A DNA stretch of 64,000 bases from positions 22,209 through 86,208 of the forward strand of contig CAYLSA010000002.1 of the NCBI GenBank assembly GCA_964386575.1. The letters run 5' to 3'. The notes beneath the pieces are model-generated. The model was not told the DNA's origin. It saw only the letters and a program-made list of their open reading frames with translations, and ran no database searches. This document shows, in pieces, positions 15,139 to 64,000 of this stretch (position 1 is the first letter of the stretch; each line of letters begins with the position of its first letter). Source of the DNA: an uncultured Oscillospiraceae bacterium. Lineage in GTDB: Bacteria > Bacillota > Clostridia > Oscillospirales > Oscillospiraceae. The position numbers and the translations under genes are program-made.

Positions 15139-15175
15139 GGGATCCTCCTTACAAAAATCCAATTTGGTACTTCCA

Positions 15176-15333: not shown

Positions 15334-15357
15334 TGGTATATAAGATCGTTGGAAGTA

Positions 15358-16708: not shown

Positions 16709-16759
16709 GCAGCGTACCATCCCCTATTTTAATAATGTATGGTAAAGCAGGAGGACAGC

Positions 16760-18118: not shown

Positions 18119-18124
18119 CGGGCT

Positions 18125-30657: not shown

Positions 30658-31642
<985 letters not shown>

Positions 31643-31650
<8 letters not shown>

Positions 31651-33732: not shown

Positions 33733-33748
33733 GAGGCTCCTCCTTTCG

Positions 33749-34660
33749 TTAATCGTAGTTGATGCGCGGGTCGACCAGCTTGTAAAGCAGGTCGCAGATG
33801 AGGTTCGCGGCCACCATCAGCACGGACAGGAAGATGGTCGTGGCCATGATGAGGGGATAGTCGCGGTTGTTGATGCCGCTGATGAACTTGCTGCCGAGAC
33901 CGCCGATGGTGAAGATGGTCTCGACGACCATGGAGCCGGTGATGATGTAGGCGATCTGGGGGCCGGCATAAGTGATGACGGGGATGAGGGAGTTGCGCAG
34001 CGCGTGCTTGAAGATCATCTTCCACTTGGCTACGCCCTTGGCGCGGGCCGTGCGGATATAGTCCTGGCTGAGCGCGTCAAGCATACTGGTTTTGGACAGA
34101 CGCGTGATGTAGGCCATGGGATAGGCCGCCAGTGCGATGACCGGCAGGAAGTAGCTCGCGCCGTCGGCACTCCAAACGGGGAACCAGCCGAGCTTGATGC
34201 AGAACACCAGCAGCAGAAGCGTTGCCAAAACGAAGCTCGGCACCGCCGTGAAGAGCGTGGAGCAGAAAATGATGACGCGGTCGGGGAATTTGTTTCGCAT
34301 CAGCGCGGCCAGCGAACCGAAGATCGTTCCGCATACCAGCGCCACGGCGATGGCCATCAGACCAAGTTTGGCGGAGGTGGGGAAGGATTCGCCGATGATG
34401 GCGGAAATCTCACGGCCGTTTTTCAGCGACACGCCCAGATCCCCCTGAAACAGCTGCTTGAGATAGTTCACAAACTGCACGGGCACGGGCTTATCCAGTC
34501 CGTAGCGGGCTTCCAGTGCCGCAATGGTGTTCGCGTCCAGAGCCTTTTCGCTGTTGAAAGGGCCGCCCGGGACGGCGTTCATGGTGAAAAACGTGATGGC
34601 GCATATAATGAAAACCGTTAATATGGCCAAAAGGATACGCTTGACGATATATCGTGCCAT
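33749..34660 (-). CDS. peptide ABC transporter permease (OppB/DppB-like)
   Basis: MARYIVKRILLAILTVF N-terminus. EAA loop DYIRTARAKGVAKWKMIFKHALRNS. Confidence 0.85.
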   Translation of the reverse strand: MARYIVKRILLAILTVFIICAITFFTMNAVPGGPFNSEKALDANTIAALEARYGLDKPVPVQFVNYLKQLFQGDLGVSLKNGREISAIIGESFPTSAKLGLMAIAVALVCGTIFGSLAALMRNKFPDRVIIFCSTLFTAVPSFVLATLLLLVFCIKLGWFPVWSADGASYFLPVIALAAYPMAYITRLSKTSMLDALSQDYIRTARAKGVAKWKMIFKHALRNSLIPVITYAGPQIAYIITGSMVVETIFTIGGLGSKFISGINNRDYPLIMATTIFLSVLMVAANLICDLLYKLVDPRINYD

Positions 34661-45326: not shown

Positions 45327-45382
45327 AATATATCCTCTCTGATCTGCGGCCTGCGCGGGCCGCCTCATTTTCGTAACAACTT

Positions 45383-46684: not shown

Positions 46685-47128
46685 ATGCCGGAAAACAACA
46701 AAAAATACTATCTTGTGGAGGGCAGCGCGCTGCCGGAGGTGTTCATCCGCGTCACGCAGGCGCGCGAGCTTTTGGACACGGGACGGGCCCAAACCGTTGC
46801 GGAGGCGGCGGCCATGGCCGGCATATCCCGCAGCGCGTATTATAAATACCGCGATACCGTTTTGCCGTTTCGCGATCTCGGCCGCGGCCGCATCGTCACA
46901 TTCCAGCTTCTTTTGGAGGATGTGGCGGGGATGCTCTCGGCGGTGCTGGCGCTGTTTTCAAGCCACGGCGCGAACATCCTGACCATCAACCAGTCCATCC
47001 CCTCCAACGGCACCGCGCCCGTCACCATCACGGCGGACACGGCTTCGCTGAATGTTTCCACGGAGGCGCTGCTTTCAAGCGTTTCGGCCTTGGAGGGCAT
47101 CATCAAGGCATCGGTTCTGGCGGGGTGA
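46685..47128 (+). CDS. UPF0735-type ACT domain protein (PheB-like)
   Basis: 147 aa. KKYYLVEGSALPEVFIRV, GISRSAYYKYRDTVLPF and a C-terminal ACT fold. Confidence 0.8.
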   Translation: MPENNKKYYLVEGSALPEVFIRVTQARELLDTGRAQTVAEAAAMAGISRSAYYKYRDTVLPFRDLGRGRIVTFQLLLEDVAGMLSAVLALFSSHGANILTINQSIPSNGTAPVTITADTASLNVSTEALLSSVSALEGIIKASVLAG

Positions 47129-48312
47129 GGCAGATGGAGAAAAAGAGATTTGCGGTTTTGGGCTATGGCACGGTGGGCAAGGCCGTTTGCCGCGTTTGGA
47201 GCGAGCTTTCGGACGCACCCTTGGCGCAGGGGCCGATCCTGGTGCGCCGGGCGCATGAGCCGGATGAATTTTCCGCGTTTATGACGGACGATTTCGCCGC
47301 CATCGAGGCCGATCCGAGCGTGGCCGTCGTGGCGGAGGTCATGGGCGGCACGGACGCGGCGTGGGAGTATTCCCGTCGGGCGCTGCTGGCCGGAAAAAGC
47401 GTGGTTTCGTCGAACAAGGCGCTCGCCGCCGAGCGCGGAGCCGAGCTTTGTGCGCTGGCGCATCGGATGGGCGTGAGTTATCGCTTCGAGGCAGCCGTTT
47501 GCGGCGGTATCCCGCTGCTCGCCCCGCTCACGGAATCGCTTGCATCCAACCGCGTGGACGAGCTGTGCGGCATTTTTAACGGCACCACGAACTATATCCT
47601 CACGGCCATGGAACGCGAGGGTGTTTCCTATGCCGAGGCCCTCTCCCGCGCGCAGGCGCTGGGCTATGCCGAGGCCGACCCCACCGCCGATGTGCAGGGG
47701 CATGACGCCGGACGCAAAACGGCGCTGCTCGGCTCGCTGGCGTTCGGAAGGCGCGTGCGCTTTGAAGATATGTCGGTTTCCGGCATCACGGAGATCACGC
47801 CGGCGGATCTGGAGCTGGCGGACGCGCTGGGCTACGGCGTGAAGCTGCTGGGCCGCACGGGACGCGGCGCGGCGGGGATCTATGCCTTTGTTGAGCCGCA
47901 TCTGGTGCCGAAGGGCGCGATGCTCGGCGCGGTGAGCGGCGTGATGAATGCCTGCGTCATTCAGGCCAGTGCCGCCGGAGAACTGATGTTCTATGGCCCC
48001 GGCGCGGGCGGACGAGCCACGGCCAGCGCCGTTTGCGCGGATATTCTGGCCGCCGCGCGGCATCCGGGCGACTGCATGGAACTTTCGGGCGAGGACGCGG
48101 CGCTGCTGCCGCCGGAGACGATCGAGTCGCGCTGGTATGTGCGTGCCGAGGCGCAGCCGGATGTGCTTTTGGCGGCCTTTCCCGAGGCCGAGCCGGTCTA
48201 TGGCTCCAGCGGCGCGTGCGCGTTTATCACGGGGCCGTGTTTGCCCTCGGCGCTGGCGGCGGGACTTGAGGCTGTGAAGGGCGCGGTCGCGTGGCGCGTT
48301 TGGCAGCCGTGA
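47125..48312 (+). CDS. hom: homoserine dehydrogenase
   Basis: NAD-binding FAVLGYGTVGKAV, catalytic-domain blocks GIFNGTTNYILT and ADPTADVQGHDAGRK. The start could instead be the ATG at 47134. Confidence 0.85.
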   Translation: MRQMEKKRFAVLGYGTVGKAVCRVWSELSDAPLAQGPILVRRAHEPDEFSAFMTDDFAAIEADPSVAVVAEVMGGTDAAWEYSRRALLAGKSVVSSNKALAAERGAELCALAHRMGVSYRFEAAVCGGIPLLAPLTESLASNRVDELCGIFNGTTNYILTAMEREGVSYAEALSRAQALGYAEADPTADVQGHDAGRKTALLGSLAFGRRVRFEDMSVSGITEITPADLELADALGYGVKLLGRTGRGAAGIYAFVEPHLVPKGAMLGAVSGVMNACVIQASAAGELMFYGPGAGGRATASAVCADILAAARHPGDCMELSGEDAALLPPETIESRWYVRAEAQPDVLLAAFPEAEPVYGSSGACAFITGPCLPSALAAGLEAVKGAVAWRVWQP

Positions 48313-48368
48313 ATAGAATGGAGTGGGCCGAGGGCCCATATATGAGCGAATAAGGGGAATCCATATAT

Positions 48369-49577
48369 ATGTTGATCGTACAAAAATTCGGCGGCTCCTC
48401 CGTGGCGGACACGAGCCGTATCAAAAATGTGGCCGCGATCATCGCGGAGACATACTTAGCCGGAAACGAGCTGGTGGTGGTCCTGTCCGCCCAGGGCGAC
48501 ACCACGGACGAGCTTTTGGAAAAGGCCGCGGAGCTGAACGCCTCGCCCTCGCGGCGGGAGCTGGATATGCTGCTTTCCACGGGCGAGCAGCAGTCCATCG
48601 CGCTGATGGCCATGTGTCTGGAGGCGATGGGACTGCCGGTCGTGTCGCTCACCGGATGGCAGGCCGGAATGCGAACGGACGCGGCCTATGGCGATGCGCG
48701 CATCCGACGCATCGACACGGAGCGCCTGCGGCGCGAGCTGGATATGAAGCGCATCGTGCTGGTGGCGGGCTTTCAGGGCATTACGAAATTCGACGATGTC
48801 ACAACGCTGGGCCGCGGCGGCTCCGATGCCACGGCGGTGGCGCTTGCGGCGGCGCTGCACGCCGATCGCTGCCAGATATTCACCGATGTCGAGGGCGTAT
48901 ACACCGCCGACCCGCGCAAGGTGCCGAACGCGCGCAAGCTTGAGGAGATCAGCTGCGACGAGATGCTGGAGCTGGCATCGATGGGGGCGCAGGTTTTGAT
49001 GAACCGCTCCGTGCAGCTGGCCAAGCGATACGGGGTGGAGCTGGAGGTTTTGTCCTCCACGGCGCGAAAGAGTGGAACGATAGTCAAGGAGGTCACGAAA
49101 GACATGGAAGAGATGAAGATCACCGGCATTGCCAAGGATGAAAAGGTCGCCCGCATCACGGTCGAGGGTCTGTCCGACACGCCGGGCGCGGCGTTTAAGG
49201 TGTTCGGGGCCATCGCCCGTCAGGGCGTGAACGTGGATGTTATCATTCAGGCCAACGGCCGCAACGGCCGCAACGATATGTCCTTCACCGTGGCCCAGGC
49301 GGACGCGGAAAAGGCGCGCGAGGCCGCCATGAGCAAGCAGAGCGTGCTGGGCTTTGAAAACGTGTCCATCGACCCGGATATCGCCAAGGTGAGCGTGGTG
49401 GGTGCGGGCATGATGTCCAACTCCGCCATCGCGGCGCTGGTGTTCGAGGCGCTCAACGATGAAAACATCAACATCCAGATGATCTCCACCAGCGAGATAA
49501 AGCTCTCCGTTATCCTCGCGCAGGGACAGGCCGACCGCGCCGTGGCGGCTATCCACCGCAAATTCTTCGAGAATTAA
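48369..49577 (+). CDS. lysC: aspartate kinase
   Basis: IVQKFGGSSV N-terminus, LGRGGSDATAVALA block, and two C-terminal ACT domains. Confidence 0.9.
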   Translation: MLIVQKFGGSSVADTSRIKNVAAIIAETYLAGNELVVVLSAQGDTTDELLEKAAELNASPSRRELDMLLSTGEQQSIALMAMCLEAMGLPVVSLTGWQAGMRTDAAYGDARIRRIDTERLRRELDMKRIVLVAGFQGITKFDDVTTLGRGGSDATAVALAAALHADRCQIFTDVEGVYTADPRKVPNARKLEEISCDEMLELASMGAQVLMNRSVQLAKRYGVELEVLSSTARKSGTIVKEVTKDMEEMKITGIAKDEKVARITVEGLSDTPGAAFKVFGAIARQGVNVDVIIQANGRNGRNDMSFTVAQADAEKAREAAMSKQSVLGFENVSIDPDIAKVSVVGAGMMSNSAIAALVFEALNDENINIQMISTSEIKLSVILAQGQADRAVAAIHRKFFEN

Positions 49578-49765: not shown

Positions 49766-52189
49766 ATGAGTCAATCCACCACCCTGTTCTCCGCGCTCAC
49801 GGCGGCCCAGCTTGCCGCGATGAACGCCGAGCAGATCGTGAAAATGGGGCGCGAACTCGTCTCCCAACTGGACAGTTGTCCGGAGGATTTCCACGGCAAC
49901 ATCTGGCCCGGCAGTATTCATTTTAATGAGGACGGAAAGGCTGTTTTGTGCTCCCGCAGCGATGCACCGGTGTCCGAGCGCACGCCCGAGCAGATCGAGT
50001 ATATGGCGCCGGAGGCGTTTTGGGAAAACCGCTTCAGCCGCAGCGCCGATCTTTACAGCATCGCCCTTGTGATGTACACCGCCTACAACGGCGGTCATTT
50101 GCCGTTTATCACCTCGTCGGAACCGACGGATGTGGAACGTGCCCAAGCCCTGCGCACGCGCATGAAGGGCGGCGAGATCGTTCCGCCGGCGGGCGCGAGC
50201 GAGGCCGTGGCCGCGATCTTGCGCCGCGCACTCTGCTACAGTCCCGATGAGCGCTATCTCACGCCGCAGGCCATGCTGCACGATCTGGGCGAGACGGATG
50301 AGTCGCTGCCCTCCGAAGCGCCGGACGATGAGCAGGCGGCCGATCCCGAAGCGGCGGCGGCTGCGGCGGCGACCGGCATGGCCGGCGTGTCCGTGGTGGC
50401 AGAGCTGGCGGCCATTCCGAAGGAGAGCGTGCGCCCCGTGGAGGCGGAGGCGGGCGTGAGCGCAAGCAGCATTTTGCTGGAAAAAGAACTGCATGATCTG
50501 GATGAGCCCGCGGCCAAGAGCGCAAAGCCTGCATCGGAACCGCTGCGCGAGATCTTCACCGAAGCGGCAGAGCCGGAACCGGCAGCGCCCGAGGTGCAGG
50601 CCGAGCCCGAGGCGGAAACGCCGGTGATGGAGGAGCCCGCGGCGGAGGAAGCGCCGCAGGCCGAGCCCGTGGCGGAAGAACCCAAGCCCGCCAAAAAGCC
50701 GCAGCCCGAGAAAAAGTCGCAACCGGTATCGCAGATGGGCGGCAAAAAGAAGAAAAAGAACAAGACCGCGCCCAAGCCGGTCGAGGGCATCGTGGACATC
50801 CCCGCCGCGCCGGTCGAGACAAAGCCCGCTGAGGAAATAAAGCCCCTTGAGCCGAAGGCGCCGGAGAAAAAGCCGGTGTCTACGGCCAAAACAACCCCCA
50901 AGGCAACACCCAAGAGCGCACCTAAGAAGCAATACACCGTTCAAAAGGACATCGACCGCCGTCAGGAGGCGGCCGTGCGCCGCAAAAACCGCAGCGGTGC
51001 GGCCATCGCTATCGGCGTTGGCGTGGTGGTCATCGCAGGATTGATCACCGTGGCGGCGTATTCGCTGGGCGCATTCGAAAAGGAAGCGCCCGTGGCGCTC
51101 GTGACGGCATCTCCGGCCGCCGAGGCTACAGCGCAGCCCACCGAAGCGCCTACGCCTGTGCCCGAACAACCCAGCTATCGCTTCACGGCCACGGCCGTCG
51201 GCTTTGACTGGGATGAGCTGAAAAATGTCGGACTGGCTGTGCTGGAAAGCGAGGAGGCGTTTGATGCGGCCGTGGCCGCGGCCGAGAAGGCCGGACTTGA
51301 AAACGCATGGCTTGGCGCGCGCTATCTCGAAGCGGACGATGCACCGAACGGCGAGGCCGGCTGGTACTGGCTGGACGGCACGCAGCTTCCCGAAAACAGC
51401 GCCTTCTGGGCCGAGGGCGAGCCTTCGGCATCGGCCGGCGGACGGTTGATGATGCGCCGCGCGCCGGATAAGAGCTGGCGGTTTTATTCCGTGACGCGCG
51501 AGCAATTTGACGATAGCGAGTTCGAACGGCTCGGCTGCATCACGGACGGCAGCGGCATGGCGGCCATCCCCAGCCCGACACCCGAACCCACGGCGGAGCC
51601 CACGCCCGAGCCCACGGAAGAGCCGAGCGGCAACGCCAATTCCTACACCTACTATGCGCCGGTATCGGCGGCCACGGCGGCCCCGACCAGCGTTCCCACG
51701 ACCGTTCCGACCGCGGTGCCTACTGCAGCGCCGACGGCCGTACCCACCGCCGTGCCCACGGCGGAGCCCACGCCCACGCCCGCGACAGAGAAATATAGTG
51801 TGGCCAGCAAGGGCAAATCGTGGACGGATGCCAACGCGGCCGGCTCGATGGCGATCGTGAGCAGCGCCGAGGACTTCACGGCCATCACGCAATTCCTTAA
51901 TGACTACAACACTACGCATACGGATGCGCCGGTGAAGAATGTGTGGCTCGGGGCCGAATACAAGGCGGCCGAGGGCGAGAAGGTTGCCGGTTGGTACTGG
52001 TCGAATGGCGCGGTGCTTTCGACGAGTGACTCTAACTGGGCCGCCGGTGAAGCTTCCAAGACCGCGGGCTGCAAGCTGATGCTGCGTCTGGTGGACGGCA
52101 CGTGGAAGTACTACGCCGTGACGGATGCGGAGTTTACCGCTGACAGCACGACCTATGCCAACACCGCCGCGCTCGCACCCAAGAGCTGA
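49766..52189 (+). CDS. single-pass membrane protein: N-terminal truncated pseudokinase (C-lobe only), long P/E/A/K-rich linker, TM helix, two C-type-lectin-like extracytoplasmic repeats
   Basis: HGNIWPGSI in place of HRDxKPxN, and CSRS in place of DFG, but YMAPE, ADLYSIALVMY and SPDERY are retained. TM segment AAIAIGVGVVVIAGLITVAAYSL. Repeats carry WLGA...GWYW(L/S)(D/N)G...(F/N)WA(E/A)GE(P/A)S. Confidence 0.7.
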   Translation: MSQSTTLFSALTAAQLAAMNAEQIVKMGRELVSQLDSCPEDFHGNIWPGSIHFNEDGKAVLCSRSDAPVSERTPEQIEYMAPEAFWENRFSRSADLYSIALVMYTAYNGGHLPFITSSEPTDVERAQALRTRMKGGEIVPPAGASEAVAAILRRALCYSPDERYLTPQAMLHDLGETDESLPSEAPDDEQAADPEAAAAAAATGMAGVSVVAELAAIPKESVRPVEAEAGVSASSILLEKELHDLDEPAAKSAKPASEPLREIFTEAAEPEPAAPEVQAEPEAETPVMEEPAAEEAPQAEPVAEEPKPAKKPQPEKKSQPVSQMGGKKKKKNKTAPKPVEGIVDIPAAPVETKPAEEIKPLEPKAPEKKPVSTAKTTPKATPKSAPKKQYTVQKDIDRRQEAAVRRKNRSGAAIAIGVGVVVIAGLITVAAYSLGAFEKEAPVALVTASPAAEATAQPTEAPTPVPEQPSYRFTATAVGFDWDELKNVGLAVLESEEAFDAAVAAAEKAGLENAWLGARYLEADDAPNGEAGWYWLDGTQLPENSAFWAEGEPSASAGGRLMMRRAPDKSWRFYSVTREQFDDSEFERLGCITDGSGMAAIPSPTPEPTAEPTPEPTEEPSGNANSYTYYAPVSAATAAPTSVPTTVPTAVPTAAPTAVPTAVPTAEPTPTPATEKYSVASKGKSWTDANAAGSMAIVSSAEDFTAITQFLNDYNTTHTDAPVKNVWLGAEYKAAEGEKVAGWYWSNGAVLSTSDSNWAAGEASKTAGCKLMLRLVDGTWKYYAVTDAEFTADSTTYANTAALAPKS

Positions 52190-55790: not shown

Positions 55791-56663
55791 ATGGAATGGC
55801 AGCAGCTAGAGTATTTTTGTGAAACAGCTAAAATGGAGCATATCACCCGCGCGGCGGAAAAGCTTCATATATCCCAGCCGTCTCTGAGCACGGCGATCCG
55901 GCGTTTGGAGCTTGAGCTGGGTGTGCGGCTTTTTGACCGGCAGGGACGGAACATAAAGCTCAATCGCTATGGCGAGGCGTTCCTGGCCAAGGTGGAGCCG
56001 GCGCTGAAGCTGCTGGAGGATGGGCGGCAGGAGCTGCGTGCAATGGCCTCGGACGCGGAAAACCGCATTATGATATCTACGCCGTCGCTGTATTCCGACC
56101 CCGCCATCATGAAGCACCTGCTGACCCAGCACCCCAATCTGGTCATTAACCAGATCTATGTCACGGAAGCAACGCTGGTACAGATGCTGAAAAACAACAA
56201 GCTCGATTTCTGTGTGACATCGCTGGAGCTGAACGATGAGCAGGTCAACTGCGAGAATCTGCGCAGCGAGAACATGATGCTTCTGGTCAGCGGCGAGCAT
56301 CCCTTGGCCGAGCGAACGGTGGTTCGCCTGGCGGATTGCCGGAACGAGCTGTTTATAACCGATATTGCCGGCAGCGCTTATCGAAAGAATCTGGAACGCT
56401 GCTGCCGGGCGGCTGGCTTTGTGCCGAAGTGTGCCTATGAAGGCGCCGGAATCCGCGATGTCATGGAGGCTGTGTCGCAGGGGATATGCGTGGCTATGGT
56501 TCCCGAACCGGCGCTGGCGACCAATACGGCATCGGATGTTCGGGGGATACGGATCGTGGATCCGTCGTACTCCATCACACTGAAAATGTATTGGCCTAAA
56601 AACAAGGTGGAGCGGAGGGTGGTCTCCTCTGTTCGCCAGATCATTATGGAACATTTCCGCTGA
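55791..56663 (+). CDS. LysR family transcriptional regulator
   Basis: HTH: MEWQQLEYFCETAKMEHITRAAEKLHISQPSLSTAIRRLELELGVRLFDR. Confidence 0.85.
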   Translation: MEWQQLEYFCETAKMEHITRAAEKLHISQPSLSTAIRRLELELGVRLFDRQGRNIKLNRYGEAFLAKVEPALKLLEDGRQELRAMASDAENRIMISTPSLYSDPAIMKHLLTQHPNLVINQIYVTEATLVQMLKNNKLDFCVTSLELNDEQVNCENLRSENMMLLVSGEHPLAERTVVRLADCRNELFITDIAGSAYRKNLERCCRAAGFVPKCAYEGAGIRDVMEAVSQGICVAMVPEPALATNTASDVRGIRIVDPSYSITLKMYWPKNKVERRVVSSVRQIIMEHFR

Positions 56664-56691
56664 GGAAGCTCTAACGGAAAACGATCTTGAG

Positions 56692-56718
56692 CCCGTCCGC
56701 TCCTGCGGACGGGTTTTT
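56692..56718 (+). terminator. rho-independent terminator after the LysR gene
   Basis: CCCGTCCGC-TCCT-GCGGACGGG followed by TTTTT. Confidence 0.8.
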
Positions 56719-56785
56719 ATATGTTACAGGCTATGAATTTTGGGGCTCATAGCTAACACCGAATAGATACGCAATAATTAGATAT

Positions 56786-56813
56786 TTGACAAACAAAGAT
56801 ACTCCGTTAATAT
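56786..56813 (+). promoter_or_regulatory. promoter for the TRASH / flavoprotein / ABC operon
   Basis: TTGACA - 16 nt - TAATAT in an AT-rich intergenic region. Confidence 0.45.
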
Positions 56814-56860
56814 AAAAGTAAACCTGAAAGTACAAATCGAAAAGAGAGGTGTCAGCAGCC

Positions 56861-57055
56861 ATGGAAGGATTTTGTCATTATTGCGGACGGCCCATAAAAG
56901 GGGAGCCGGAGATCATCGTTCGCCGCGGCAAAAAGAAGGTTTACTGCTCGGACTTTTGCTTTAAGCTTGATTTTTACGATGCGCCGGTGATCACCTATGA
57001 GGCGCTGAAGGATATGTACAGGCAGCGCTGCATTGAAGTGTGGCTGGACGATTGA
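56861..57055 (+). CDS. stand-alone TRASH / zf-FCS-like metal-binding mini-protein (64 aa)
   Basis: C-x2-C-x20-C-x3-C spacing (CHYC...YCSDFC). An alternative GTG start lies at 56849. Confidence 0.55.
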   Translation: MEGFCHYCGRPIKGEPEIIVRRGKKKVYCSDFCFKLDFYDAPVITYEALKDMYRQRCIEVWLDD

Positions 57056-57073
57056 ATTAGGGGGGATTAACAG

Positions 57074-58870
57074 GTGGTTAAAAATATGGAAGAACTGGCG
57101 GATCGGATCCTTGAAACCGATTTTCTGATCATCGGCGGCGGCCTCGTTGGCTGTATGGCAGCGCTGCGGGCGAAAAAGAACGATCCCAAGATCGATGTGA
57201 CCATTATCGACAAGGCGAAAATGGAATACGCCGGAGACGGAGTTGGTCTGGATAACTTCAACATGGTCCCGCTGCATAAGGAGGATATGTACAAAGACTA
57301 TAGCGAGGAGGATGCCAGCAAAGCAACGTTCGGCGCGAACCGTCTGCATGGACTGGTAAATCCCCGCTTGGATGCCGTTTCAATGCGCAATGCCTATATC
57401 TCCCTTCCGTTGCTGGAGGAGGTTGGTGTTCGGGTGCGCGAGGATGACGGCGCTCTCTACATCCTTCAGGCTTATCGCCGCGGTGTGAACTGGGGCCGTG
57501 TTGAGTATGACGAAAACGGCCAGCCCTGTGAGCCCCGCTTTGGCTCGCTTTCGCGCGGCTCGGATCTGAAGCAGCGGCTGGGCGCCGCGGTTCGGGCCAA
57601 TGGGACCCATGTTCTCGATCGAACGATGGTAACGAGTGTTGTGACGAACGATGGCGTGGCGGTGGGCGCTACGGCAATCAATACGCGAACGAACGAATTT
57701 GTGTTCATTAAGGCAAAAACTGTGCTCATCAGCACTGGACAGGTGGCGCGGCTGTATCCCTACCAGTGGGCGCCGTATCCCAACAATCTGTTTTACTCCG
57801 TGGCATCGCCGGTGAACCACGGCGGCGGCCACATTGCGGCACTGAATGCTGGGGCGAAGCTGGTAACGATGGATATGTGCAATGTATACAACGTTACGAA
57901 GGGCGTGAACCACAGCAGCGGCGGTGGCGGCTGCAACTGGTTTTTCCGCATGTATAACTCCAAAGGTGAATCGCTGGAGGACAAGTATCCGGAAAGAATG
58001 GTCACAAAGATCGGCGGCACCATTCCCGGCGTGAACTATCTGTTTGGGCCGGGCATTGAGGACGCCGAGGTGCTGAAGGATGTGATACTGTCCTATAAGG
58101 ACAAGGCAGAGCCGGACACGGTGAACGCGGTTTATTTCACGGCGGCGACCGAGCCGACAAGAGCACTGAAGTTCCATAAGCTTGCCGGCGGGCTCACCAA
58201 TGAAAAGCCGAGCGAATGTGTTCATGTTTTCACGGGTCTTACGCAGGCGGGTAACGGCATCCTGCGCGAAAACGAGGTGTCCGAGACCGGTGTGAAGAAT
58301 CTGTTCGCGGCTGGTGCCTGCGTGGGCGCGGGCGGATCGGCTGGCTTCACATGGGCTTGCTTGGTGGCGGATCGGGTGTCGGACATTATTAAGAACATCC
58401 CTGCGCCGACCATTGGCGACGAACAGCTTCAGCAGGTGGCGGCAACAAAGCAGTGGGTCTATGCGCCCTATAAGCGGGAAGGCGGCTATGCCGTGGACCC
58501 GCTGGAGATGGAGGACTACGTCCGGCGTATCAACATGGATTATGTGGGCCTGTTCAAATATACTTCGAAGATGGAGCGGGGGCTTGAGCTTCTTAACCGC
58601 GTGAAGGAGAACGCTGTGCCGCAGCTTACGGCGAACACGCCGCACGAGCTGATGCGCGCGATCGAGGCACAGCAGATTTTGGAGATATCCCAAATGCACA
58701 TCCAGTCTTCTCTGATGCGAACAGAAAGCCGTCTTGTGCCTGTGCACTACCGTGTGGAGTATCCCGAACGGGATCCGAAGTGGGAAAACATGGTGATCCA
58801 GTGCGCCAAAGCGGATGGGCGGACGAAATACGAGATCGTAAAACTGAGCGAAACTGTAAAGGATATGTGA
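57074..58870 (+). CDS. FAD-dependent oxidoreductase, APS-reductase alpha (AprA) / fumarate-reductase flavoprotein-like
   Basis: Dinucleotide fold DFLIIGGGLVGCMAALRA...IIDKAKMEYAGDGVGLDNFN, AprA-like. About 595 aa. C-terminal helical capping region. The start could instead be the ATG at 57086. Confidence 0.65.
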   Translation: MVKNMEELADRILETDFLIIGGGLVGCMAALRAKKNDPKIDVTIIDKAKMEYAGDGVGLDNFNMVPLHKEDMYKDYSEEDASKATFGANRLHGLVNPRLDAVSMRNAYISLPLLEEVGVRVREDDGALYILQAYRRGVNWGRVEYDENGQPCEPRFGSLSRGSDLKQRLGAAVRANGTHVLDRTMVTSVVTNDGVAVGATAINTRTNEFVFIKAKTVLISTGQVARLYPYQWAPYPNNLFYSVASPVNHGGGHIAALNAGAKLVTMDMCNVYNVTKGVNHSSGGGGCNWFFRMYNSKGESLEDKYPERMVTKIGGTIPGVNYLFGPGIEDAEVLKDVILSYKDKAEPDTVNAVYFTAATEPTRALKFHKLAGGLTNEKPSECVHVFTGLTQAGNGILRENEVSETGVKNLFAAGACVGAGGSAGFTWACLVADRVSDIIKNIPAPTIGDEQLQQVAATKQWVYAPYKREGGYAVDPLEMEDYVRRINMDYVGLFKYTSKMERGLELLNRVKENAVPQLTANTPHELMRAIEAQQILEISQMHIQSSLMRTESRLVPVHYRVEYPERDPKWENMVIQCAKADGRTKYEIVKLSETVKDM

Positions 58871-58882
58871 TGGTGACTGCCG

Positions 58883-59164
58883 ATGTTTAATATGAAAGTA
58901 AACTACGGGCCGAAGGTAGATGCGGCCAGATGCACGGGCTGCGGCAAGTGCTACGATATGTGTCCTATGGATGTGTTCGGCTATGATGAAAGCACCCATA
59001 CGCTGACGGTAGACTATGCGGCGGAATGTCAGATGTGCTGCTATTGCGAGACGGTGTGTCCGGAGGTGGCCATTGATGTTCAGTTCCCGCTGGGACATCT
59101 GATCGATTTTGGCATAGAGCCGGACAAGATCACGCAGCGCAGTCGTTTTCTGGAGGAAGATTGA
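58883..59164 (+). CDS. 2x[4Fe-4S] ferredoxin-type small subunit (AprB-like partner)
   Basis: CTGCGKCYDMCP and CQMCCYCETVCP motifs. Lies 12 nt downstream of the flavoprotein gene. Confidence 0.75.
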   Translation: MFNMKVNYGPKVDAARCTGCGKCYDMCPMDVFGYDESTHTLTVDYAAECQMCCYCETVCPEVAIDVQFPLGHLIDFGIEPDKITQRSRFLEED

Positions 59165-59228
59165 GGCAAACCTGCCGCCTGCCTGCCAACCATAGAGCAG
59201 CTGCGGCGGCAAGAGAAAGGAACTTTCT

Positions 59229-60206
59229 ATGGTAAAGTACATTATCAAACGCTTGTTTATGATGATTGCTGTCACGCTGGGCGTCATGCTGTTTGTGTTC
59301 TTTTTCCAGTCGGTCTCACCGGACGATCCCACGGCGGCGATCCTAGGCGAAGGCGCCACGGACGAGCAGCGAATGGCGCTGCGGGCGGAACTTGGATTGG
59401 ATGATCCTGTGATCGTGCAGTTTGCGCGCTATGTGTGGAATTTCGTGACAAAGGGCGATTTGGGAACATCCTATAAATCCAATCTGCCGGTCATGGATGA
59501 GCTGCTTTCACGCTTTCCTGTTACCTTTGAGCTTGCGATTGGATCGGTGCTTTTGGGCGTGATCATTGGCGTTCCGTTAGGCGTTTTATCGGCTGTCAAG
59601 GAATACTCTGTTTTTGACAGCGTGATCCTCGCGTTTTCCGTTTTTGCGCGTTCCATGCCGACGTTCTGGCTGGGCCTTATTATGATCTCGCTGTTCTCCG
59701 TTAAGCTCGGGTGGCTGCCAAGCTATGGCATTATGAGCTGGAAAGGCTGGATCATGCCAACGATCGTGGTGTGTGTGGCAACGATGTCCAGTCTGGTGCG
59801 AACGACCCGCTCGAGTATGCTGGAGGTGATCCGGCAGGATTATATCCGCACGGCTCGCGCCAAGGGGCAAACGGAAAAGAAGATTATCATCCGCCACGCG
59901 CTGCGCAACTCCATGATCCCCATTGTCAACACGATCGGCAACACGATGGGTATTCAGCTTGGCGGTGCACTGGTGATCGAGTCGGTGTTCGGCATGCCCG
60001 GCATAGGGAAGTATGCCGTGGACGCGATATCCGCGAGAAATTACCCGGCTGTGACCGGCAGCGTGGTGTTTTTGGCCATCGTGTTTTCGGTTGTGAATCT
60101 GATTGTCGATATCAGTTACACGGCGATCGATCCGAGGCTGCGTTCGTCCATCATCGGAGAGAGTCGGAAAAAAAGCAGACGGGCGCGCGCCGCGCAGGAG
60201 GGATGA
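59229..60206 (+). CDS. peptide-type ABC transporter permease (OppB/DppB-like)
   Basis: MVKYIIKRLFMMIAVTL N-terminus. EAA loop DYIRTARAKGQTEKKIIIRHALRNS. Confidence 0.85.
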   Translation: MVKYIIKRLFMMIAVTLGVMLFVFFFQSVSPDDPTAAILGEGATDEQRMALRAELGLDDPVIVQFARYVWNFVTKGDLGTSYKSNLPVMDELLSRFPVTFELAIGSVLLGVIIGVPLGVLSAVKEYSVFDSVILAFSVFARSMPTFWLGLIMISLFSVKLGWLPSYGIMSWKGWIMPTIVVCVATMSSLVRTTRSSMLEVIRQDYIRTARAKGQTEKKIIIRHALRNSMIPIVNTIGNTMGIQLGGALVIESVFGMPGIGKYAVDAISARNYPAVTGSVVFLAIVFSVVNLIVDISYTAIDPRLRSSIIGESRKKSRRARAAQEG

Positions 60207-60209
60207 AGC

Positions 60210-61121
60210 ATGGCAAAACGAATGACCCCTGCAATGGAGCGCATAAACAAAGCCAATACTACCCGCAGTGGACGGCAGAAGGAATTTACCTTTACCCGTG
60301 ATGCGTGGATGCGCTTCAAGCGAAACAAAACGGCTGTGATCGGGCTCGTTATGATCGTTATCATCCTGCTCGTGGCGGCTTTCGCGCCATGGCTTTGCCC
60401 TTATGATTACACGGAAACGGACTATCTGGCGGCCAACCAGAAGCCCAGTGCGGAGCACTGGTTCGGAACGGACAATCTTGGCCGCGACCTGTTCAGCCGC
60501 TGCATCTACGGCACAAGGATCTCGGTTCCCTTGGGCATCATATGCATGGTGTTCGGCTGCTTGACTGGTGGCTTTTTGGGCATGGTGGCTGCTTATTTTG
60601 CCGGTGCGACAGATAATATCATCATGCGCATTATGGATGTTTTGCAGGCGATTCCCGGCACGCTGCTTGCTATCGTGGTCATTGCCACGCTCGGAAACGG
60701 AACGACGCAGCTAGTCATCGCGTTGCTTATCAGCTCCATGCCGATGATGGCAAAAACTTTCCGTGCGGCGATTTTCACGGTGCGCAGCGCGGATTACATG
60801 GAATCCTGCCGCTCCATCGGCGCGGGGAATATGCGCCTTATGATCCATCACGCGCTTCCTAATGCGCTGGGCCACATCATCATTTTTGCCGTCAGCAGCA
60901 TACCCAGCACCATCATGATCATCACCAGTCTGAGTTATATCGGGCTTGGCATCCAGCCGCCGGCACCTGAATGGGGCGCGCTGCTGTCCGCCGGGAAAAA
61001 CTACTTCATGTCGTATGGCTACATGGTTTTGTATCCCGGACTGATGATCATGTTTACGGTTTTGGCCTTCAATCTTTTCGGCGACGGTCTGCGCGATGCG
61101 CTTGACCCGCGGCTTAAGTAA
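60210..61121 (+). CDS. peptide-type ABC transporter permease (OppC/DppC-like)
   Basis: HWFGTDNLGRDLFSR motif. EAA loop SCRSIGAGNMRLMIHHALPN. Confidence 0.85.
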   Translation: MAKRMTPAMERINKANTTRSGRQKEFTFTRDAWMRFKRNKTAVIGLVMIVIILLVAAFAPWLCPYDYTETDYLAANQKPSAEHWFGTDNLGRDLFSRCIYGTRISVPLGIICMVFGCLTGGFLGMVAAYFAGATDNIIMRIMDVLQAIPGTLLAIVVIATLGNGTTQLVIALLISSMPMMAKTFRAAIFTVRSADYMESCRSIGAGNMRLMIHHALPNALGHIIIFAVSSIPSTIMIITSLSYIGLGIQPPAPEWGALLSAGKNYFMSYGYMVLYPGLMIMFTVLAFNLFGDGLRDALDPRLK

Positions 61122-61138
61122 CACCGGGAGGAGAAAGC

Positions 61139-62182
61139 ATGAAAAAGAAAACAAAAACCGGACTTGGTCCTCCTCCGCTCGTTGAGACGCCCGCGGTGGA
61201 TATTCCGGACGATGCCGTTATTACCGTTAAGGATCTGGTCGTCCACTATGAGACGAACGAAGGTGTTGTGGAGGCGGTCAACGGTGTGTCGCTGGAGCTG
61301 AAAAAGGGCGACTGCTTTGGTCTGATCGGAGAGACCGGCGCGGGGAAAACAACGATCGCGCTTTCGATCATGGGGCTGCTACCTTATCCGCCAAGCCATA
61401 TTATTCAGGGGCGTGTGTATCTGAACAAGGAGGATCTGCTCGAAAAAACTGAAGAACAGATGCGCAAGCTGCGCGGCAAGAAGATGAGCATGATCTTCCA
61501 GGACCCGATGACAGCGCTCAATCCCGTTCATAAGGTTGGCGACCAGATCGCAGAGATCATTCGCATCCATCAGGGCGTATCGGCGGCGGAGGCGGCGGCA
61601 AAGGCAACGGAGATGCTGGAAATGGTCGGCGTTCCTGGCGACCGCTACAACGATTATCCTCACCAGTTTTCCGGCGGCATGAAGCAGCGTGTTATCATTG
61701 CTATCGCCATTGCCTGCCAGCCGGAGATCATCATCGCGGACGAGCCAACAACGGCACTGGATGTCACGATCCAGGCGCAGGTGCTGGATATGATGAAGGA
61801 GCTTGTGCACAAGTTTGGCACAACGCTGCTCATGATCACGCATGATTTTGGCGTGGTCGCGGAGATCTGCAATAAGTGCGCGGTCATATACGCGGGGCAG
61901 GTCGTGGAGGTGGGAACGGTTCGGCAGGTATTCAAAAACCCGTCGCACCCGTATACCATCGGCCTTTTTGATTCCATTCCCGATGTGGACCAGCAGACGG
62001 ATCGTCTTAAGCCGATCAAGGGCATGGTGGCCAATCCGATGGATCTGCCGCCGTGTTGCAGCTTCTATGACCGGTGTGAATTCTGCAAAAGCATGTGCCG
62101 CGATGTAGACCCCGGCTACATTGAGGTCGAGCCAGGCCATTTGGTCAAATGTCTGCATCCGCAGAGGAAGGGCGGTGAGTGA
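61139..62182 (+). CDS. peptide-type ABC transporter ATP-binding protein (OppD-like)
   Basis: Walker A GETGAGKTT, signature FSGGMKQRVIIAIAI, Walker [13 protein letters not shown]. Confidence 0.85.
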   Translation: MKKKTKTGLGPPPLVETPAVDIPDDAVITVKDLVVHYETNEGVVEAVNGVSLELKKGDCFGLIGETGAGKTTIALSIMGLLPYPPSHIIQGRVYLNKEDLLEKTEEQMRKLRGKKMSMIFQDPMTALNPVHKVGDQIAEIIRIHQGVSAAEAAAKATEMLEMVGVPGDRYNDYPHQFSGGMKQRVIIAIAIACQPEIIIADEPTTALDVTIQAQVLDMMKELVHKFGTTLLMITHDFGVVAEICNKCAVIYAGQVVEVGTVRQVFKNPSHPYTIGLFDSIPDVDQQTDRLKPIKGMVANPMDLPPCCSFYDRCEFCKSMCRDVDPGYIEVEPGHLVKCLHPQRKGGE

Positions 62183-63162
62183 GCGTGGCTTTGATCGAGC
62201 TGAAGCATTTGAAAAAGTATTTCAACACGGCGTCGGGTGTCCTTCACGCGGTGGACGATGTGACCATGTCGATCGGTGAAGGAAAGACCATGGGCGTTGT
62301 GGGCGAATCTGGCTGCGGAAAATCCTCGCTTGGAAAAACGGTTCTTCATCTGCTGGAGCCGACCTCCGGCGAGATATGGTTTGATGGCCGGGAAATTTCC
62401 AAAATGAATAAGTCACTTTTCAAAGAGACACGTACGCAGATGCAAATGGTGTTTCAGGATCCGTATGCCTCGCTGGATCCCCGAAAAACTGTCAGTCAGA
62501 CCATCGCAGAGCCACTTGTGATCCATAAGCGGTGCCGGTCGAAGGAGGAGCTGAAGAAAAAGGTCCGGGAGCTCATGGATACGGTTGGCTTGGCGTCGCG
62601 TATGTCCAATACCTACCCGCATGAGATGGACGGCGGCCGACGCCAGCGCGTGGGCATTGCACGTGCGCTTGCATTGGAGCCACGATTCATTGTTTGCGAT
62701 GAGCCGGTGTCCGCGCTGGATGTGTCCATCCAGGCTCAGGTGTTGAATCTGTTGCAGGATCTGCAAAGAGAGAAGAATCTCACCTATATGTTCATCACGC
62801 ATGACCTTTCCGTTGTGCGGCATATCTCCGACGAGATCTGCGTGATGTATCTTGGCCAGGTCGTTGAGCAGGCCACCGCGCAGGAGCTGTTCACGCATAC
62901 CCTGCATCCCTATTCACAGGCGCTTCTGTCGGCAAGACCCGGCATCGATCTGGATAACAGAAAAGAACGTATCATACTCAAAGGGGAGCTTACGTCCCCG
63001 ATTAATCCACCGAAGAACTGTCGGTTCTGTGCGCGCTGCATCTATGCCACGGAGGAGTGCAGACAGACCGAGCCCGAGCTGACCGATGTGGGCAATGGCC
63101 ACAGAGTGGCCTGCCATAAGGTGAAAACACTTACGGATGTTCCGGCGCTGCCGAACAAATAA
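62179..63162 (+). CDS. peptide-type ABC transporter ATP-binding protein (OppF-like)
   Basis: GTG start overlaps the upstream stop. Walker A GESGCGKSS, signature MDGGRRQRVGIARAL, Walker B FIVCDEPVSALD. Confidence 0.85.
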   Translation: MSVALIELKHLKKYFNTASGVLHAVDDVTMSIGEGKTMGVVGESGCGKSSLGKTVLHLLEPTSGEIWFDGREISKMNKSLFKETRTQMQMVFQDPYASLDPRKTVSQTIAEPLVIHKRCRSKEELKKKVRELMDTVGLASRMSNTYPHEMDGGRRQRVGIARALALEPRFIVCDEPVSALDVSIQAQVLNLLQDLQREKNLTYMFITHDLSVVRHISDEICVMYLGQVVEQATAQELFTHTLHPYSQALLSARPGIDLDNRKERIILKGELTSPINPPKNCRFCARCIYATEECRQTEPELTDVGNGHRVACHKVKTLTDVPALPNK

Positions 63163-63178
63163 AAACAGGAGGAAAACA

Positions 63179-64000
63179 ATGAAGAAACTCGTGTCCTTAA
63201 TCCTCGCGCTTGCCATGCTCTTTGTTCTGATGACTGGCTGCGGAAGTCAGACGGAGCAAGAACCTGCCTCTGTGGAGGCCGAACCCACGGTGGAAGAAGT
63301 CGTGGAGGAAGCGACCAAAGCTCCGGCCGAAGAGGGGACGTCGGATGAAACATTGGTCGTCTGCCTGTCCGAAGAGCCGTCGCAGCTTATCAAAACGATC
63401 GCTGAGATCGGCAATTCCGGCCTGTATGTCAGCAGTGCCATGGTAGATTCCCTGCTCTGGTACGACAGCGAAAAGGGTATTCAGCCGAACATTATCACAG
63501 AATGGGAATGGCTTGATAATCTGCATCTTCAGGTCAAGCTCCGCGAGGATGTTACGGCGCATGACGGCACACCTCTCACGGCGAACGACCTTTACTATAC
63601 CTGCAAGATCGCGGTTGAGTCCGGCATTACGGATACCAATATGCTTGATCTCAACGAATGCTCGGTCGTGGACGAACACACCGCTATCATTGGCTTGAAC
63701 CAGCCCTATGCCACGTTCGTTGATAAGCTGTGCAACGACGGCTTCCTCACGCCGGTCAGCGAAAGCGCTGTGGAAAGCGCAGGTGGCCTGGAAGCGGCAG
63801 TGCGCGCGCCGAAGATTTTCACCGGCCCGTATATCTTTGACGAATGGGTCGAGGGCCAGTATATCCGCCTTGTTCGAAACGATAACTACTGGAACAGCGA
63901 TCGCTGCGGCTATTATAAGTATATTGAGTATACCTTCGTTCCCGATGCGGCCACCCGCGCGATGGCCCTGCAGAGCGGCGACGTGGACGTGGCGGTCGAT
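63179..64000 (+). CDS. family-5 ABC substrate-binding lipoprotein, 5' part (runs off window)
   Basis: My own translation from ATG 63179, since this ORF has no stop in the window and is absent from the track: MKKLVSLILALAMLFVLMTGCGSQTEQ... followed by SBP_bac_5-like blocks (VKLREDVTAHDGTPLTANDLYYT; GPYIFDEWVEGQYIRLVRNDNYW). Confidence 0.75.
   Translation, partial: MKKLVSLILALAMLFVLMTGCGSQTEQEPASVEAEPTVEEVVEEATKAPAEEGTSDETLVVCLSEEPSQLIKTIAEIGNSGLYVSSAMVDSLLWYDSEKGIQPNIITEWEWLDNLHLQVKLREDVTAHDGTPLTANDLYYTCKIAVESGITDTNMLDLNECSVVDEHTAIIGLNQPYATFVDKLCNDGFLTPVSESAVESAGGLEAAVRAPKIFTGPYIFDEWVEGQYIRLVRNDNYWNSDRCGYYKYIEYTFVPDAATRAMALQSGDVDVAVD

Follow-up and report, generated by a model that had tools for sequence, protein, structure and literature searches.

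A conserved three-component iron-sulfur flavoenzyme family of anaerobes with an adenylylsulfate reductase-like fold and replaced catalytic residues

Near the downstream end of a 64,000-nt stretch of DNA from an uncultured Oscillospiraceae bacterium (contig CAYLSA010000002.1; "the window" in the following), genes for a small Cys4 protein, an FAD flavoprotein and a ferredoxin stand side by side, followed by genes for an Opp/Dpp-type ATP-binding cassette (ABC) importer. The three proteins represent a conserved, unnamed three-component Fe-S flavoenzyme family of diverse anaerobes, for which no characterised member was found. An earlier note on this DNA had spoken of an "AprAB-like pair". The conserved unit is instead a trio, in which the small Cys4 protein is the third partner: both partners adjoin the flavoprotein gene in 26 of the 29 complete homologues with enough flanking DNA, the small protein on the 5' side and the ferredoxin on the 3' side. 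These loci span Bacillota, Deltaproteobacteria/Syntrophus, Dehalococcoidia and Bathyarchaeia. The genes of the window locus, checked by an open reading frame (ORF) list, Pfam and NCBIfam, are on the plus strand throughout, and those of the trio are the following:

56861-57055, + strand: zinc-ribbon-like protein of 64 aa with the Cys4 motif CxxC-x24-CxxxC; putative gamma subunit, the third of the flavoenzyme
57074-58870, + strand: FAD flavoprotein with AprA/PAPS-reductase-like fold, catalytic subunit; Pfam FAD_binding_2 and Succ_DH_flav_C
58883-59164, + strand: 93-aa subunit of the 2x[4Fe-4S] ferredoxin type, its C-terminal extension conserved; Pfam Fer4 families, two Cys motifs

The ORF of the small protein extends from 56849 to 57055. 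Its likely start is the ATG at 56861, which has an upstream GAGAGG ribosome-binding site and gives 64 aa; gene callers give the same 64-aa product in a 96%-identical contig. The flavoprotein comprises 598 aa from a GTG or 594 aa from the ATG at 57086. A 659-aa antisense ORF (57380-59359, minus strand) overlaps its gene. Many long ORFs lie opposite real genes in the window as artefacts of GC-rich coding DNA, and the strand was resolved by a test of GC content at third codon positions (GC3).

Homology searches returned about 170 clusters, with proteins 58-69% identical to the flavoprotein, none of which carries a functional name. Homologues in databases belong to Dethiobacteria, Moorellales, Syntrophorhabdaceae and Bathyarchaeia, and those from genome and metagenome scans to Deltaproteobacteria, Syntrophus, Syntrophomonadaceae, Sporobacter and Dehalococcoidaceae. 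Across phyla, the flavoproteins of the family are 42-69% identical. A genome scan with the single sequence found no homologues, and a repeat search with a profile found no additional ones. In the literature, queries on AprA-like, glutamate-mutase-like and gene-cluster topics led to a sulfur-assimilation AprAB-like complex and unrelated work, and to no description of the family. Some homologues contain in-frame stops, and selenocysteine was considered and rejected as their explanation. The stops are a TGA at the position of N203 and TAA codons; no conserved Cys lies at any of these positions, and such copies are therefore pseudogenes or errors. The locus L057 carries a second flavoprotein copy (17290-19083) with an in-frame TGA at the N203 position and a split ferredoxin, probably a decaying paralogue and not a selenoprotein.

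Across phyla, homologues of the small protein share 40-75% identity with the one in the window. All four Cys residues (CxxC...CxxxC) are invariant in its homologues, which also share an invariant YCSDFCFKL-FYD-P core. Only 11 clusters were found at E <= 1e-3 among 1.84 billion representative proteins; the small-protein family is tiny, and specific to the trio enzyme. The earlier label of a TRASH protein is weak: the CxxC-x24-CxxxC motif is kept in all homologues, but the Pfam matches stay below threshold (zf-FCS 1e-3, 19.4 bits versus 22.4; Arc_trans_TRASH 2e-3 to 4e-3, 18.4 bits versus 27). In the ferredoxin, the eight cluster Cys residues are conserved in homologues. The protein scored 28.6 bits against the NCBIfam aprB model (cut-off 135), covering profile positions 5-65 of 132. 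It has both [4Fe-4S] cluster motifs and no C-terminal tail of the kind that wraps around AprA.

Searches of the PDB with the family profile matched the flavoprotein best to the alpha subunit of 3'-phosphoadenylylsulfate (PAPS) reductase from Methanothermococcus thermolithotrophicus (8a8o_A, 3.6e-42), followed by AprA, the alpha subunit of adenylylsulfate (APS) reductase, from Archaeoglobus fulgidus (1jnr_A, 2.2e-36). Matches to the flavoproteins of succinate dehydrogenase (Sdh), fumarate reductase (Frd) and L-aspartate oxidase (NadB) were weaker (2e-20 to 5.6e-12). An AlphaFold (AF2) model built from 117 family sequences reached a pLDDT of 90.1, and its Foldseek ranking agreed with the profile ranking. 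The top matches were 8a8o_A, 1jnr_A, 2fja_A and 3gyx_A at TM-scores of 0.69-0.83 (0.77-0.83 for 8a8o_A); the first three gave 0.72-0.83 at about 20-22% identity. The model thus has the fumarate-reductase-type FAD fold with an AprA-like domain arrangement.

In AprA, Arg-A265 and His-A398 are invariant and catalytic and hold the sulfate group, and Asn-A74 and Trp-A234 lie at the re-face of the flavin (PMC2211403). The AprA active-site residues are kept in the methanogen PAPS reductase (PMC10322725). We took the AprA residues from the former study and mapped them onto the family by HMMER alignments on conserved flanks, with the numbering checked on 1jnr:

Asn-A74: N63, kept in 90/117 family sequences
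Trp-A234: Phe240, in 115/117
Arg-A265: Val274, Val in 117/117
His-A398: Leu389, Ile/Val/Leu in 113/117

The catalytic Arg/His pair of an APS or PAPS reductase alpha subunit was thus not found in the 117 sequences, and the segment with His-A446 and Phe-A448 falls into a deletion of the family relative to AprA. AprA positions 266-283, which make ribose and adenine contacts, align with a near-invariant family loop (K276, N279-H280-S281-S282-GGG(G)-C287-N288-W289; Y272 and V274 are also near-invariant). Judged by this alignment, the residues of the AMP channel (Val-A273, Gly-A274, the Leu-A278/Arg-A317 clamp, His-A446 and Phe-A448) appear to be missing, and the NHSSGGGGCNW loop would take their place.

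Nor does the active site match that of fumarate reductase. We take His232, Arg287, His355 and Arg390 to form the dicarboxylate site of E. coli FrdA. By alignment to Sdh1 (7d6v_A) and by the conserved motifs, the equivalent positions hold Y272, a variable residue 300, G/T390 and G424, and none of the four residues of the site is present. The position of the covalent-FAD histidine (FrdA His44) holds Tyr or Trp. The family has an invariant acidic triplet, E123, D124 and D125, within an insertion that aligns with a channel-lining loop of PAPS reductase (PMC10322725). All NCBIfam scores of the flavoprotein remained far below the respective cut-offs (PRK08275, 196 versus 587; PRK06854, 142.9 versus 557; aprA TIGR02061, 75.6 versus 641.75; sdhA_frdA, 76 versus 567). 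As the defining active-site residues are replaced, the protein is neither an APS or PAPS reductase nor a fumarate reductase, and "AprAB-like" describes its fold and electron wiring only. The earlier note had seen a resemblance to both AprA and fumarate reductase. The closest relatives are indeed the alpha subunits of APS and PAPS reductases, but neither the catalytic residues of AprA nor those of fumarate reductase are kept. By these sequence comparisons the trio is excluded from AprAB, Frd/Sdh and NadB, and the flavoprotein does not cluster within any family of known function; such clustering was an outcome that the earlier note had named as speaking against its proposal.

Comparison with individual known systems sharpens this picture. 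The M. thermolithotrophicus enzyme (MtPAPSR alpha/beta, PDB 8a8o; PMC10322725), the top match in both sequence and fold, likewise pairs an FAD-containing alpha subunit with a small 2x[4Fe-4S] ferredoxin-type beta subunit, and in both enzymes the flavin is predicted to be non-covalent, as there is no His at the FrdA His44 position. At about 22% identity, the Arg of its RVKD motif and the His of its GGHGQAG motif correspond to Val274 and Leu/Ile389 in the trio family, which in addition has a long conserved insertion (~120-165), another channel loop, the extra Cys4 protein and no adjoining sulfate-activation genes. AprAB (A. fulgidus 1jnr/2fja; Desulfovibrio gigas 3gyx) shares the fold (TM 0.72-0.78) and the wiring logic from FAD over one [4Fe-4S] cluster to the next. 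The Asn-A74 equivalent is mostly kept, whereas Trp-A234 is replaced along with Arg-A265 and His-A398, His-A446 and Phe-A448 are unaligned, the 93-aa ferredoxin lacks the AprB tail and qmo, sat and dsr genes are absent.

The "AprAB-like" complexes of the DiSCo study were reported with sulfur-assimilation neighbours (PMC8477390). They too combine an AprA-like flavoprotein (NCBIfam PRK08275/PRK13800-type) with a short ferredoxin without AprB tail, but identity is only about 27%, and they lie amid sulfate/sulfonate transport and assimilation genes, unlike the trio family. Plasmid B of Sinorhizobium americanum (NZ_CP013109.1, 287312-289592; L107) encodes a 27% homologue that belongs to this sulfur-linked group. 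It is preceded by a small DUF971 protein and followed by a ferredoxin of 77 aa, with a HEAT-repeat protein next and a sulfate/sulfonate ABC and TauD cluster around. The three-part gene order therefore also occurs in the sulfur-linked AprA-like clade. The Sinorhizobium homologue keeps the His-A398 equivalent, which the trio family does not, and its DUF971 partner differs from the TRASH-like Cys4 protein. Frd/Sdh, NadB and TcuA are members of the same superfamily (FAD_binding_2 and Succ_DH_flav_C) and two-electron flavin enzymes acting on carboxylates. Their similarity to the flavoprotein is weaker (50-76 bits in the PDB; TcuA 25 bits), the His/Arg/His/Arg site and the covalent-FAD His are absent from the family, and its partner is a 2x[4Fe-4S] ferredoxin and not an SdhB/FrdB- or TcuB-type protein. 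Active-site residues, small subunit, genomic context and the absent sulfur link thus set the trio family apart from its relatives.

In order to place the trio in its genomic context, we surveyed 41 non-redundant loci, in which ORFs were called by conservation and clustered, and clusters were named from Pfam labels. The most frequent neighbours were the following:

~480-aa Met_asp_mut_E (GlmE-like mutase): 17 loci
B12-binding proteins: 15 loci
DctM of tripartite ATP-independent periplasmic (TRAP) transporters: 10 loci
TRAP DctP: 9 loci
TRAP DctQ: 9 loci
MmgE/PrpD: 9 loci
Opp-type permeases: 8 loci
Old yellow enzyme (OYE)-type Fe-S flavoenzymes: 8 loci
Aldehyde:ferredoxin oxidoreductases (AFOR): 7 loci
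SBP_bac_5: 7 loci

Other recurrent neighbours were short-chain dehydrogenases/reductases (SDRs), iron-containing alcohol dehydrogenases, M24 peptidase, Amidohydro_2, SnoaL_4, and sigma-54 or LysR regulators. The order small protein, flavoprotein, ferredoxin, B12 subunit, mutase recurs in loci of Deltaproteobacteria and Syntrophus. None of the genes sat, dsr, qmo, asr or cys, nor a sulfite reductase, sulfite exporter or sulfate transporter gene, was seen beside the trio in the 41 loci, and the window locus and its extension (see below) likewise lack sat, qmo, dsr, cysC and cysD as well as asr and any gene for a sulfate transporter. The earlier statement that sat, qmo and dsr are missing was correct for the locus, the extension and about 25 other annotated genes of the window, which were the scope of the check. 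Its view that the enzyme does not belong to sulfate reduction and its remark that no named pathway fits also stand.

The GlmE-like partner matched GlmE of C. cochlearium (1cb7_B) at 3.6e-101. We take the substrate of GlmE to be bound by Arg66, Arg100, Arg149, Glu171 and Tyr181, with Glu171 contacting the amino group. In an alignment of the partners (L055:12660-14099, L004:12712-14154, L051:7426-8901 and 13 others), Arg66 is replaced by Gly, Glu171 by Ala, Tyr177 by Asp and Tyr181 by His, while Arg100 and Arg149 are retained. The site of a glutamate mutase is thus incomplete, and the partner is probably an adenosylcobalamin mutase of new specificity. In L054 (ENA ERZ27257304 k141_1432622, 1-16000), three trio paralogues are interleaved with three mutase-like paralogues, together with PrpD, SnoaL_4 and M24 genes, an arrangement that suggests co-diversification of enzyme pairs.

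Other loci add further partners. A trio clade of 48% identity, found in Sporobacter and Syntrophomonadaceae metagenome-assembled genomes (MAGs; L058, L006, L009, ~2300-16100), adjoins genes for a TRAP system, an AsnC regulator, an MtgC-like corrinoid protein and an aldehyde dehydrogenase, together with a glycyl-radical enzyme and its activase. For the glycyl-radical enzyme, no curated cut-off was attained (HypD model 610 bits versus 1100; HpsG model 586 versus 1000). Candidate electron partners are a NuoF-like protein in L071 and an acyl-CoA dehydrogenase with EtfAB in L001. L055 contains genes for a Mo-hydroxylase, an aconitase-type hydratase and a mutase; nicotinate fermentation, considered as a reading of that locus, does not apply to the window locus. 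An independent replicate of the window layout is L065, where a MarR regulator, a UGSC-domain protein (44% identical to those of the window locus, described below), the trio (flavoprotein 63% identical to that of the window), a full Opp-type ABC system and Amidohydro_2 are found together.

In the window, the trio is preceded by a regulator gene and followed by the importer:

55791-56663, + strand: LysR-family transcriptional regulator, 290 aa; Pfam HTH_1 2e-21, LysR_substrate 4e-31; opens the low-GC3 block, GC3 0.70
56689-56716, + strand: intrinsic-terminator-like hairpin 3' of the LysR gene; 12-bp stem with 8 GC pairs, T-run
56786-56813, + strand: sigma-70-like promoter candidate TTGACA-16-TAATAT within the AT-rich intergenic spacer; 10/12 consensus positions, a consensus match only, such matches being no commoner in the region than in shuffles
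59229-60206, + strand: Opp/Dpp-type ABC permease (OppB/DppB/NikB-like); BPD_transp_1 6e-41, NCBIfam Opp2B 319 bits versus cut-off 350
60210-61121, + strand: Opp/Dpp-type ABC permease (OppC/DppC/GsiD-like); OppC_N and BPD_transp_1, GsiD 290 bits, under cut-off
61139-62182, + strand: ABC ATPase (OppD-like); ABC_tran and oligo_HPY
62179-63162, + strand: ABC ATPase (OppF/DppF-like); ABC_tran and oligo_HPY, 4-bp overlap with the preceding gene
63179-64000, + strand, cut by the window end: family-5 substrate-binding lipoprotein (SBP_bac_5) with lipobox LMTGC; full length 537 aa in the extension

All the genes of the earlier list (LysR, the 64-aa Cys4 protein, a flavoprotein of ~595 aa, the 93-aa ferredoxin and a five-gene importer) were recovered in place on the plus strand, as were the LysR terminator and the AT-rich promoter region. 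The regulator has both domains of the LysR type, HTH_1 and the LysR substrate-binding domain. Its top NCBIfam match was GltC-like (187 bits versus a cut-off of 350), and it attained no equivalog cut-off. Downstream of the promoter gap, the gene junctions measure -4 to 64 bp. No known RNA or riboswitch was detected in leaders in the window at 54-64 kb or in L104, L050 and L065; a rydB match was dismissed as chance (27 bits versus a threshold of 50).

With two BPD_transp_1 permeases, two oligo_HPY ATPases and an SBP_bac_5 protein, the importer is of the Opp/Dpp type (PepT family). None of its proteins attained the equivalog cut-offs for Dpp, Opp, Gsi, Nik or Cnt. The substrate-binding protein (SBP) scored far below every curated cut-off, with weak top matches to GsiB, NikA and CntA. 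In other loci, the SBPs that adjoin the trio share 23-27% identity with that of the window, compared with 58-69% for the flavoproteins, and the former range barely exceeds the 24% identity of an unrelated second Opp SBP of the window. By these identities, the transporter appears not to be co-inherited with the trio. TRAP systems, which need an acidic group on their substrate, are about as common beside the trio as Opp systems. The peptide or opine substrate proposed earlier therefore gains no specific support, given the low SBP scores, the divergent SBPs and the frequency of TRAP systems.

The locus does not stop at the window edge. The Logan contig L104 is identical to window positions 61663-64000 at 2338/2338 bases and then runs on for ~8.6-8.9 kb. 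It completes the SBP at 537 aa and encodes further proteins downstream:

L104:3305-4978 and 5133-6764 (= 64967-68426, just past the window): two paralogous UGSC-domain proteins, 557 and 543 aa, with an N-terminal UGSC domain
L104, 3' of the UGSC pair: SnoaL_4 (NTF2-like) protein, 244 aa
L104: OYE-type Fe-S flavoenzyme, 668 aa; Oxidored_FMN and Pyr_redox_2

Both UGSC-domain proteins downstream of the SBP have FGSC in place of the Sec/Cys motif, and their C-terminal ~400 aa carry no annotation. Among the UGSC-type proteins of 540-570 aa (both L104 copies and L065:7913-9625), Phe or Ala occupies the Sec/Cys position (FGSC or AASC), and the conserved ~400-aa C-terminal part contains the motifs ATVEKIAINAVMAGC and GWTCSM. 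For this part there was no sequence match in the PDB and no extra Pfam match even at E = 10. The idea that the UGSC-domain proteins are diverged fused mutases was rejected, as hhalign gave a probability of 0.1% against the GlmE-like alignment. The OYE-type enzyme has the Oxidored_FMN and Pyr_redox_2 architecture of BaiCD, bilirubin reductase BilR and clostridial enoate reductases, but the locus contains no other bai or bil genes. Its NCBIfam scores are about half of the curated cut-offs (BilR long form 403 bits versus 750; BaiCD 392 versus 825), and a substrate is therefore not assignable. A convergent MATE gene lies beyond the OYE-type gene, and there GC3 returns towards the host value. With the L104 continuation, the low-GC3 block comprises 13 genes over ~15.5 kb, of which the window holds the first 8.2 kb.

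The composition of this block differs from that of its flanks. GC content in 1-kb steps was 0.546 +/- 0.010 at 56-64 kb and 0.609 +/- 0.027 at 1-55 kb (Mann-Whitney p = 1e-5). GC3 was 0.66-0.70 for the locus genes in the window, 0.63-0.76 with the downstream L104 genes included and 0.78-0.88 in 38 flanking genes, and the shift starts exactly at the LysR gene. The five 60-nt GC counts of the earlier note (43, 43, 60, 62 and 78%) were recomputed as 0.433, 0.417, 0.567, 0.617 and 0.80. The hint of a deviating composition is thus borne out by 1-kb GC and GC3; a lack of deviation from the genome was one of the outcomes that the earlier note had named as speaking against it. The flanks consist of housekeeping genes (homoserine dehydrogenase, aspartate kinase, HtrA, SDR, galactose mutarotase). 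The prolyl-tRNA synthetase of the window is 83-92% identical to proteins of Oscillospiraceae/Oscillibacter-type MAGs, whereas close relatives of the flavoprotein number only two (96% and 88%), and the next best match is at 69%. This difference fits an accessory block that was probably acquired laterally. Lateral acquisition, as had been suggested earlier, is plausible from GC3 and the scarcity of close homologues, and the block is compositionally foreign; no tRNA or mobility gene was seen at the block edges.

Elsewhere in the window we noted an HpaB/AbfD-family protein (1989-3434), TrkA/TrkH (16739-19579), tRNA-Pro(TGG) (25061-25136), the prolyl-tRNA synthetase gene (43890-45368, minus strand) and the homoserine dehydrogenase and aspartate kinase genes (47125-49577). 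The second, unrelated Opp/Dpp operon, with the SBP mentioned above, occupies 28663-34660 on the minus strand and has a host-like GC3 of 0.82-0.86. At 49766-52189, where local GC reaches 0.80, lies the gene for an 807-aa protein that contains an extended low-complexity region rich in Pro, Ala, Glu and Lys; this gene accounts for the 78% GC sample of the earlier note. The protein had no match at E <= 1e-10 in NCBIfam, the only library used.

What could the trio do? Its conservation far exceeds that of the neighbouring transporters and partner enzymes, and its substrate is therefore probably an intermediate on which several feeder routes converge and not the imported molecule. A small carboxylated substrate is suggested by the neighbours PrpD (a hydratase/dehydratase family), the enoate-reductase-type OYE enzymes and the acid-reducing AFOR, all of which act on carboxylic or enoic acids, and by the carboxylate-dependent TRAP systems, and two-electron C-C/C=C chemistry by its dominance in the superfamily. 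We tentatively propose, while leaning somewhat towards doubt, that the FAD subunit carries out ferredoxin-linked two-electron C-C/C=C redox chemistry on a small carboxylated intermediate in the catabolism of an imported compound. In such a scheme, the compound bound by the lipoprotein would be imported via the ABC system, and the UGSC-domain and SnoaL-like proteins would convert it into the small carboxylated intermediate. The FAD subunit would then catalyse an enoate-type oxidation or reduction beside a carboxyl or carbonyl group, with the two [4Fe-4S] clusters of the ferredoxin subunit relaying electrons to or from soluble ferredoxin. The Cys4 protein could be a structural zinc subunit and may replace the absent AprB tail, the OYE-type enzyme could perform a second, NAD(P)H-linked ene-reduction, and LysR may sense the substrate or the intermediate.

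We also find it quite possible, if still short of probable, that the trio founds a new enzyme class in the AprA branch of the fumarate-reductase superfamily, with a reaction new to that superfamily. It would at the same time supply the redox core for a modular anaerobic pathway that is so far undescribed, working elsewhere with a new adenosylcobalamin mutase derived from glutamate mutase and here with the UGSC-domain proteins in that role.

Several points weigh against carboxylate redox chemistry at this locus. The proposed substrate and reaction direction come from context. Classical enoate chemistry would need another binding mode, because the dicarboxylate-binding residues of fumarate/succinate-type enzymes are absent. 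The acidic triplet E123-D124-D125, the M24, S15 and Amidohydro_2 neighbours and the GlmE-like partner would be just as compatible with an amine-bearing substrate and C-N chemistry. The window locus lacks the genes most typical of the family neighbourhoods, those for the mutase, PrpD and TRAP systems. Placement of the NHSSGGGGCNW loop in the substrate channel is suggested by an ungapped alignment to AprA 266-283, and co-transcription of the trio with the ABC genes by gene spacing and the lack of intergenic terminators.

If the amine fit is taken at face value, the trio would oxidise or reductively form a C-N bond, the imported substrate being an amino acid, an amino acid derived from a dipeptide, an opine-like secondary amine or a betaine, in line with the kind of substrate that the earlier note had supposed. 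L-Aspartate oxidase, which has such chemistry, belongs to the same superfamily, but the four NadB/Frd residues for the alpha- and beta-carboxylates are absent here. The enzyme that most often accompanies the trio is homologous to an amino-acid mutase but lacks Glu171, presumably the amino-group ligand of GlmE. An Opp/Dpp-type importer and the GsiB-, NikA- and CntA-like SBP would suit amines, yet SBPs are unconserved among loci and TRAP systems rival Opp systems in number. The recurrent peptidases and Amidohydro_2 and the acidic triplet in the channel-loop insertion add to this explanation; no opine-type or Amadori-type enzymes adjoin the trio. We consider C-N chemistry unlikely on this balance. 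AprA-type chemistry of flavin N5 with sulfite, acting on a C-S or O-S bond as in the reductive desulfonation of an imported sulfonate, appears quite improbable. Among characterised proteins, PAPS and APS reductases stand nearest to the trio, and the Asn-A74 equivalent is kept in 90/117 sequences, but hydrophobic residues replace the sulfate-holding Arg-A265 and His-A398 in all or nearly all members, and Phe replaces Trp-A234. Sulfonates are among the compounds that TRAP systems can carry. The glycyl-radical enzyme that, with an aldehyde dehydrogenase, adjoins the 48%-identity clade scored 586 bits on the sulfopropanediol dehydratase model (cut-off 1000), but it scored higher on the hydroxyproline dehydratase model and attained the cut-off of neither. 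The Sinorhizobium plasmid homologue has the same three-gene order inside a sulfate/sulfonate cluster, yet none of the 41 family neighbourhoods contains a sulfite reductase, sulfite exporter, sat or cys gene.

It is very improbable that the trio itself turns over no organic compound and supplies low-potential electrons for the reactivation of a B12 mutase, for a glycyl-radical activase or for the OYE enzyme. The strongly conserved capping domain and channel loop of a 600-aa flavoprotein imply a specific small-molecule substrate, and the joint duplication of trio and mutase paralogues in L054 points to co-diversifying specificity and not to a shared utility. The window locus, moreover, has no radical enzyme, although the trio adjoins B12 mutase-like genes in 17 loci, and MutL-like reactivases, a glycyl-radical enzyme with its activase and the NuoF-like diaphorase of L071 also occur beside it. 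That the trio is a true APS or PAPS reductase serving sulfur assimilation, comparable to the methanogen enzyme or the DiSCo AprAB-like complex, is scarcely credible. Such enzymes give the top sequence and fold matches, the NCBIfam models PRK08275 and aprA-type PRK06854 scored 196 and 143 bits, and some sources name homologues "adenylylsulfate reductase subunit A". Set against this, these scores are far under the cut-offs of 587 and 557, there is no conservation of the catalytic Arg and His, of the adenine clamp region or of His446/Phe448, the AprB tail is missing from the ferredoxin, and the sulfur-assimilation neighbours of the DiSCo complex (PMC8477390) are absent at the locus.

The naming of the family has practical consequences. 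Pipelines label its members "adenylylsulfate reductase subunit A" or "fumarate reductase flavoprotein", and metagenomic surveys may in consequence report sulfate reduction or fumarate respiration where there is none. Residue tests can separate the family from both enzymes: Val274, Ile/Leu389, Phe240, the NHSSGGGGCNW loop and the upstream Cys4 gene. The window locus is a compact version with a regulator and an importer, and its SBP and LysR could be used in a search for the substrate. Conservation from Bacillota to Bathyarchaeia, together with the links to GlmE-like mutases, PrpD, enoate reductase and acid transporters, suggests that guts, digesters and sediments harbour an unrecognised route by which organic acids or derivatives of amino acids are fermented or reduced.

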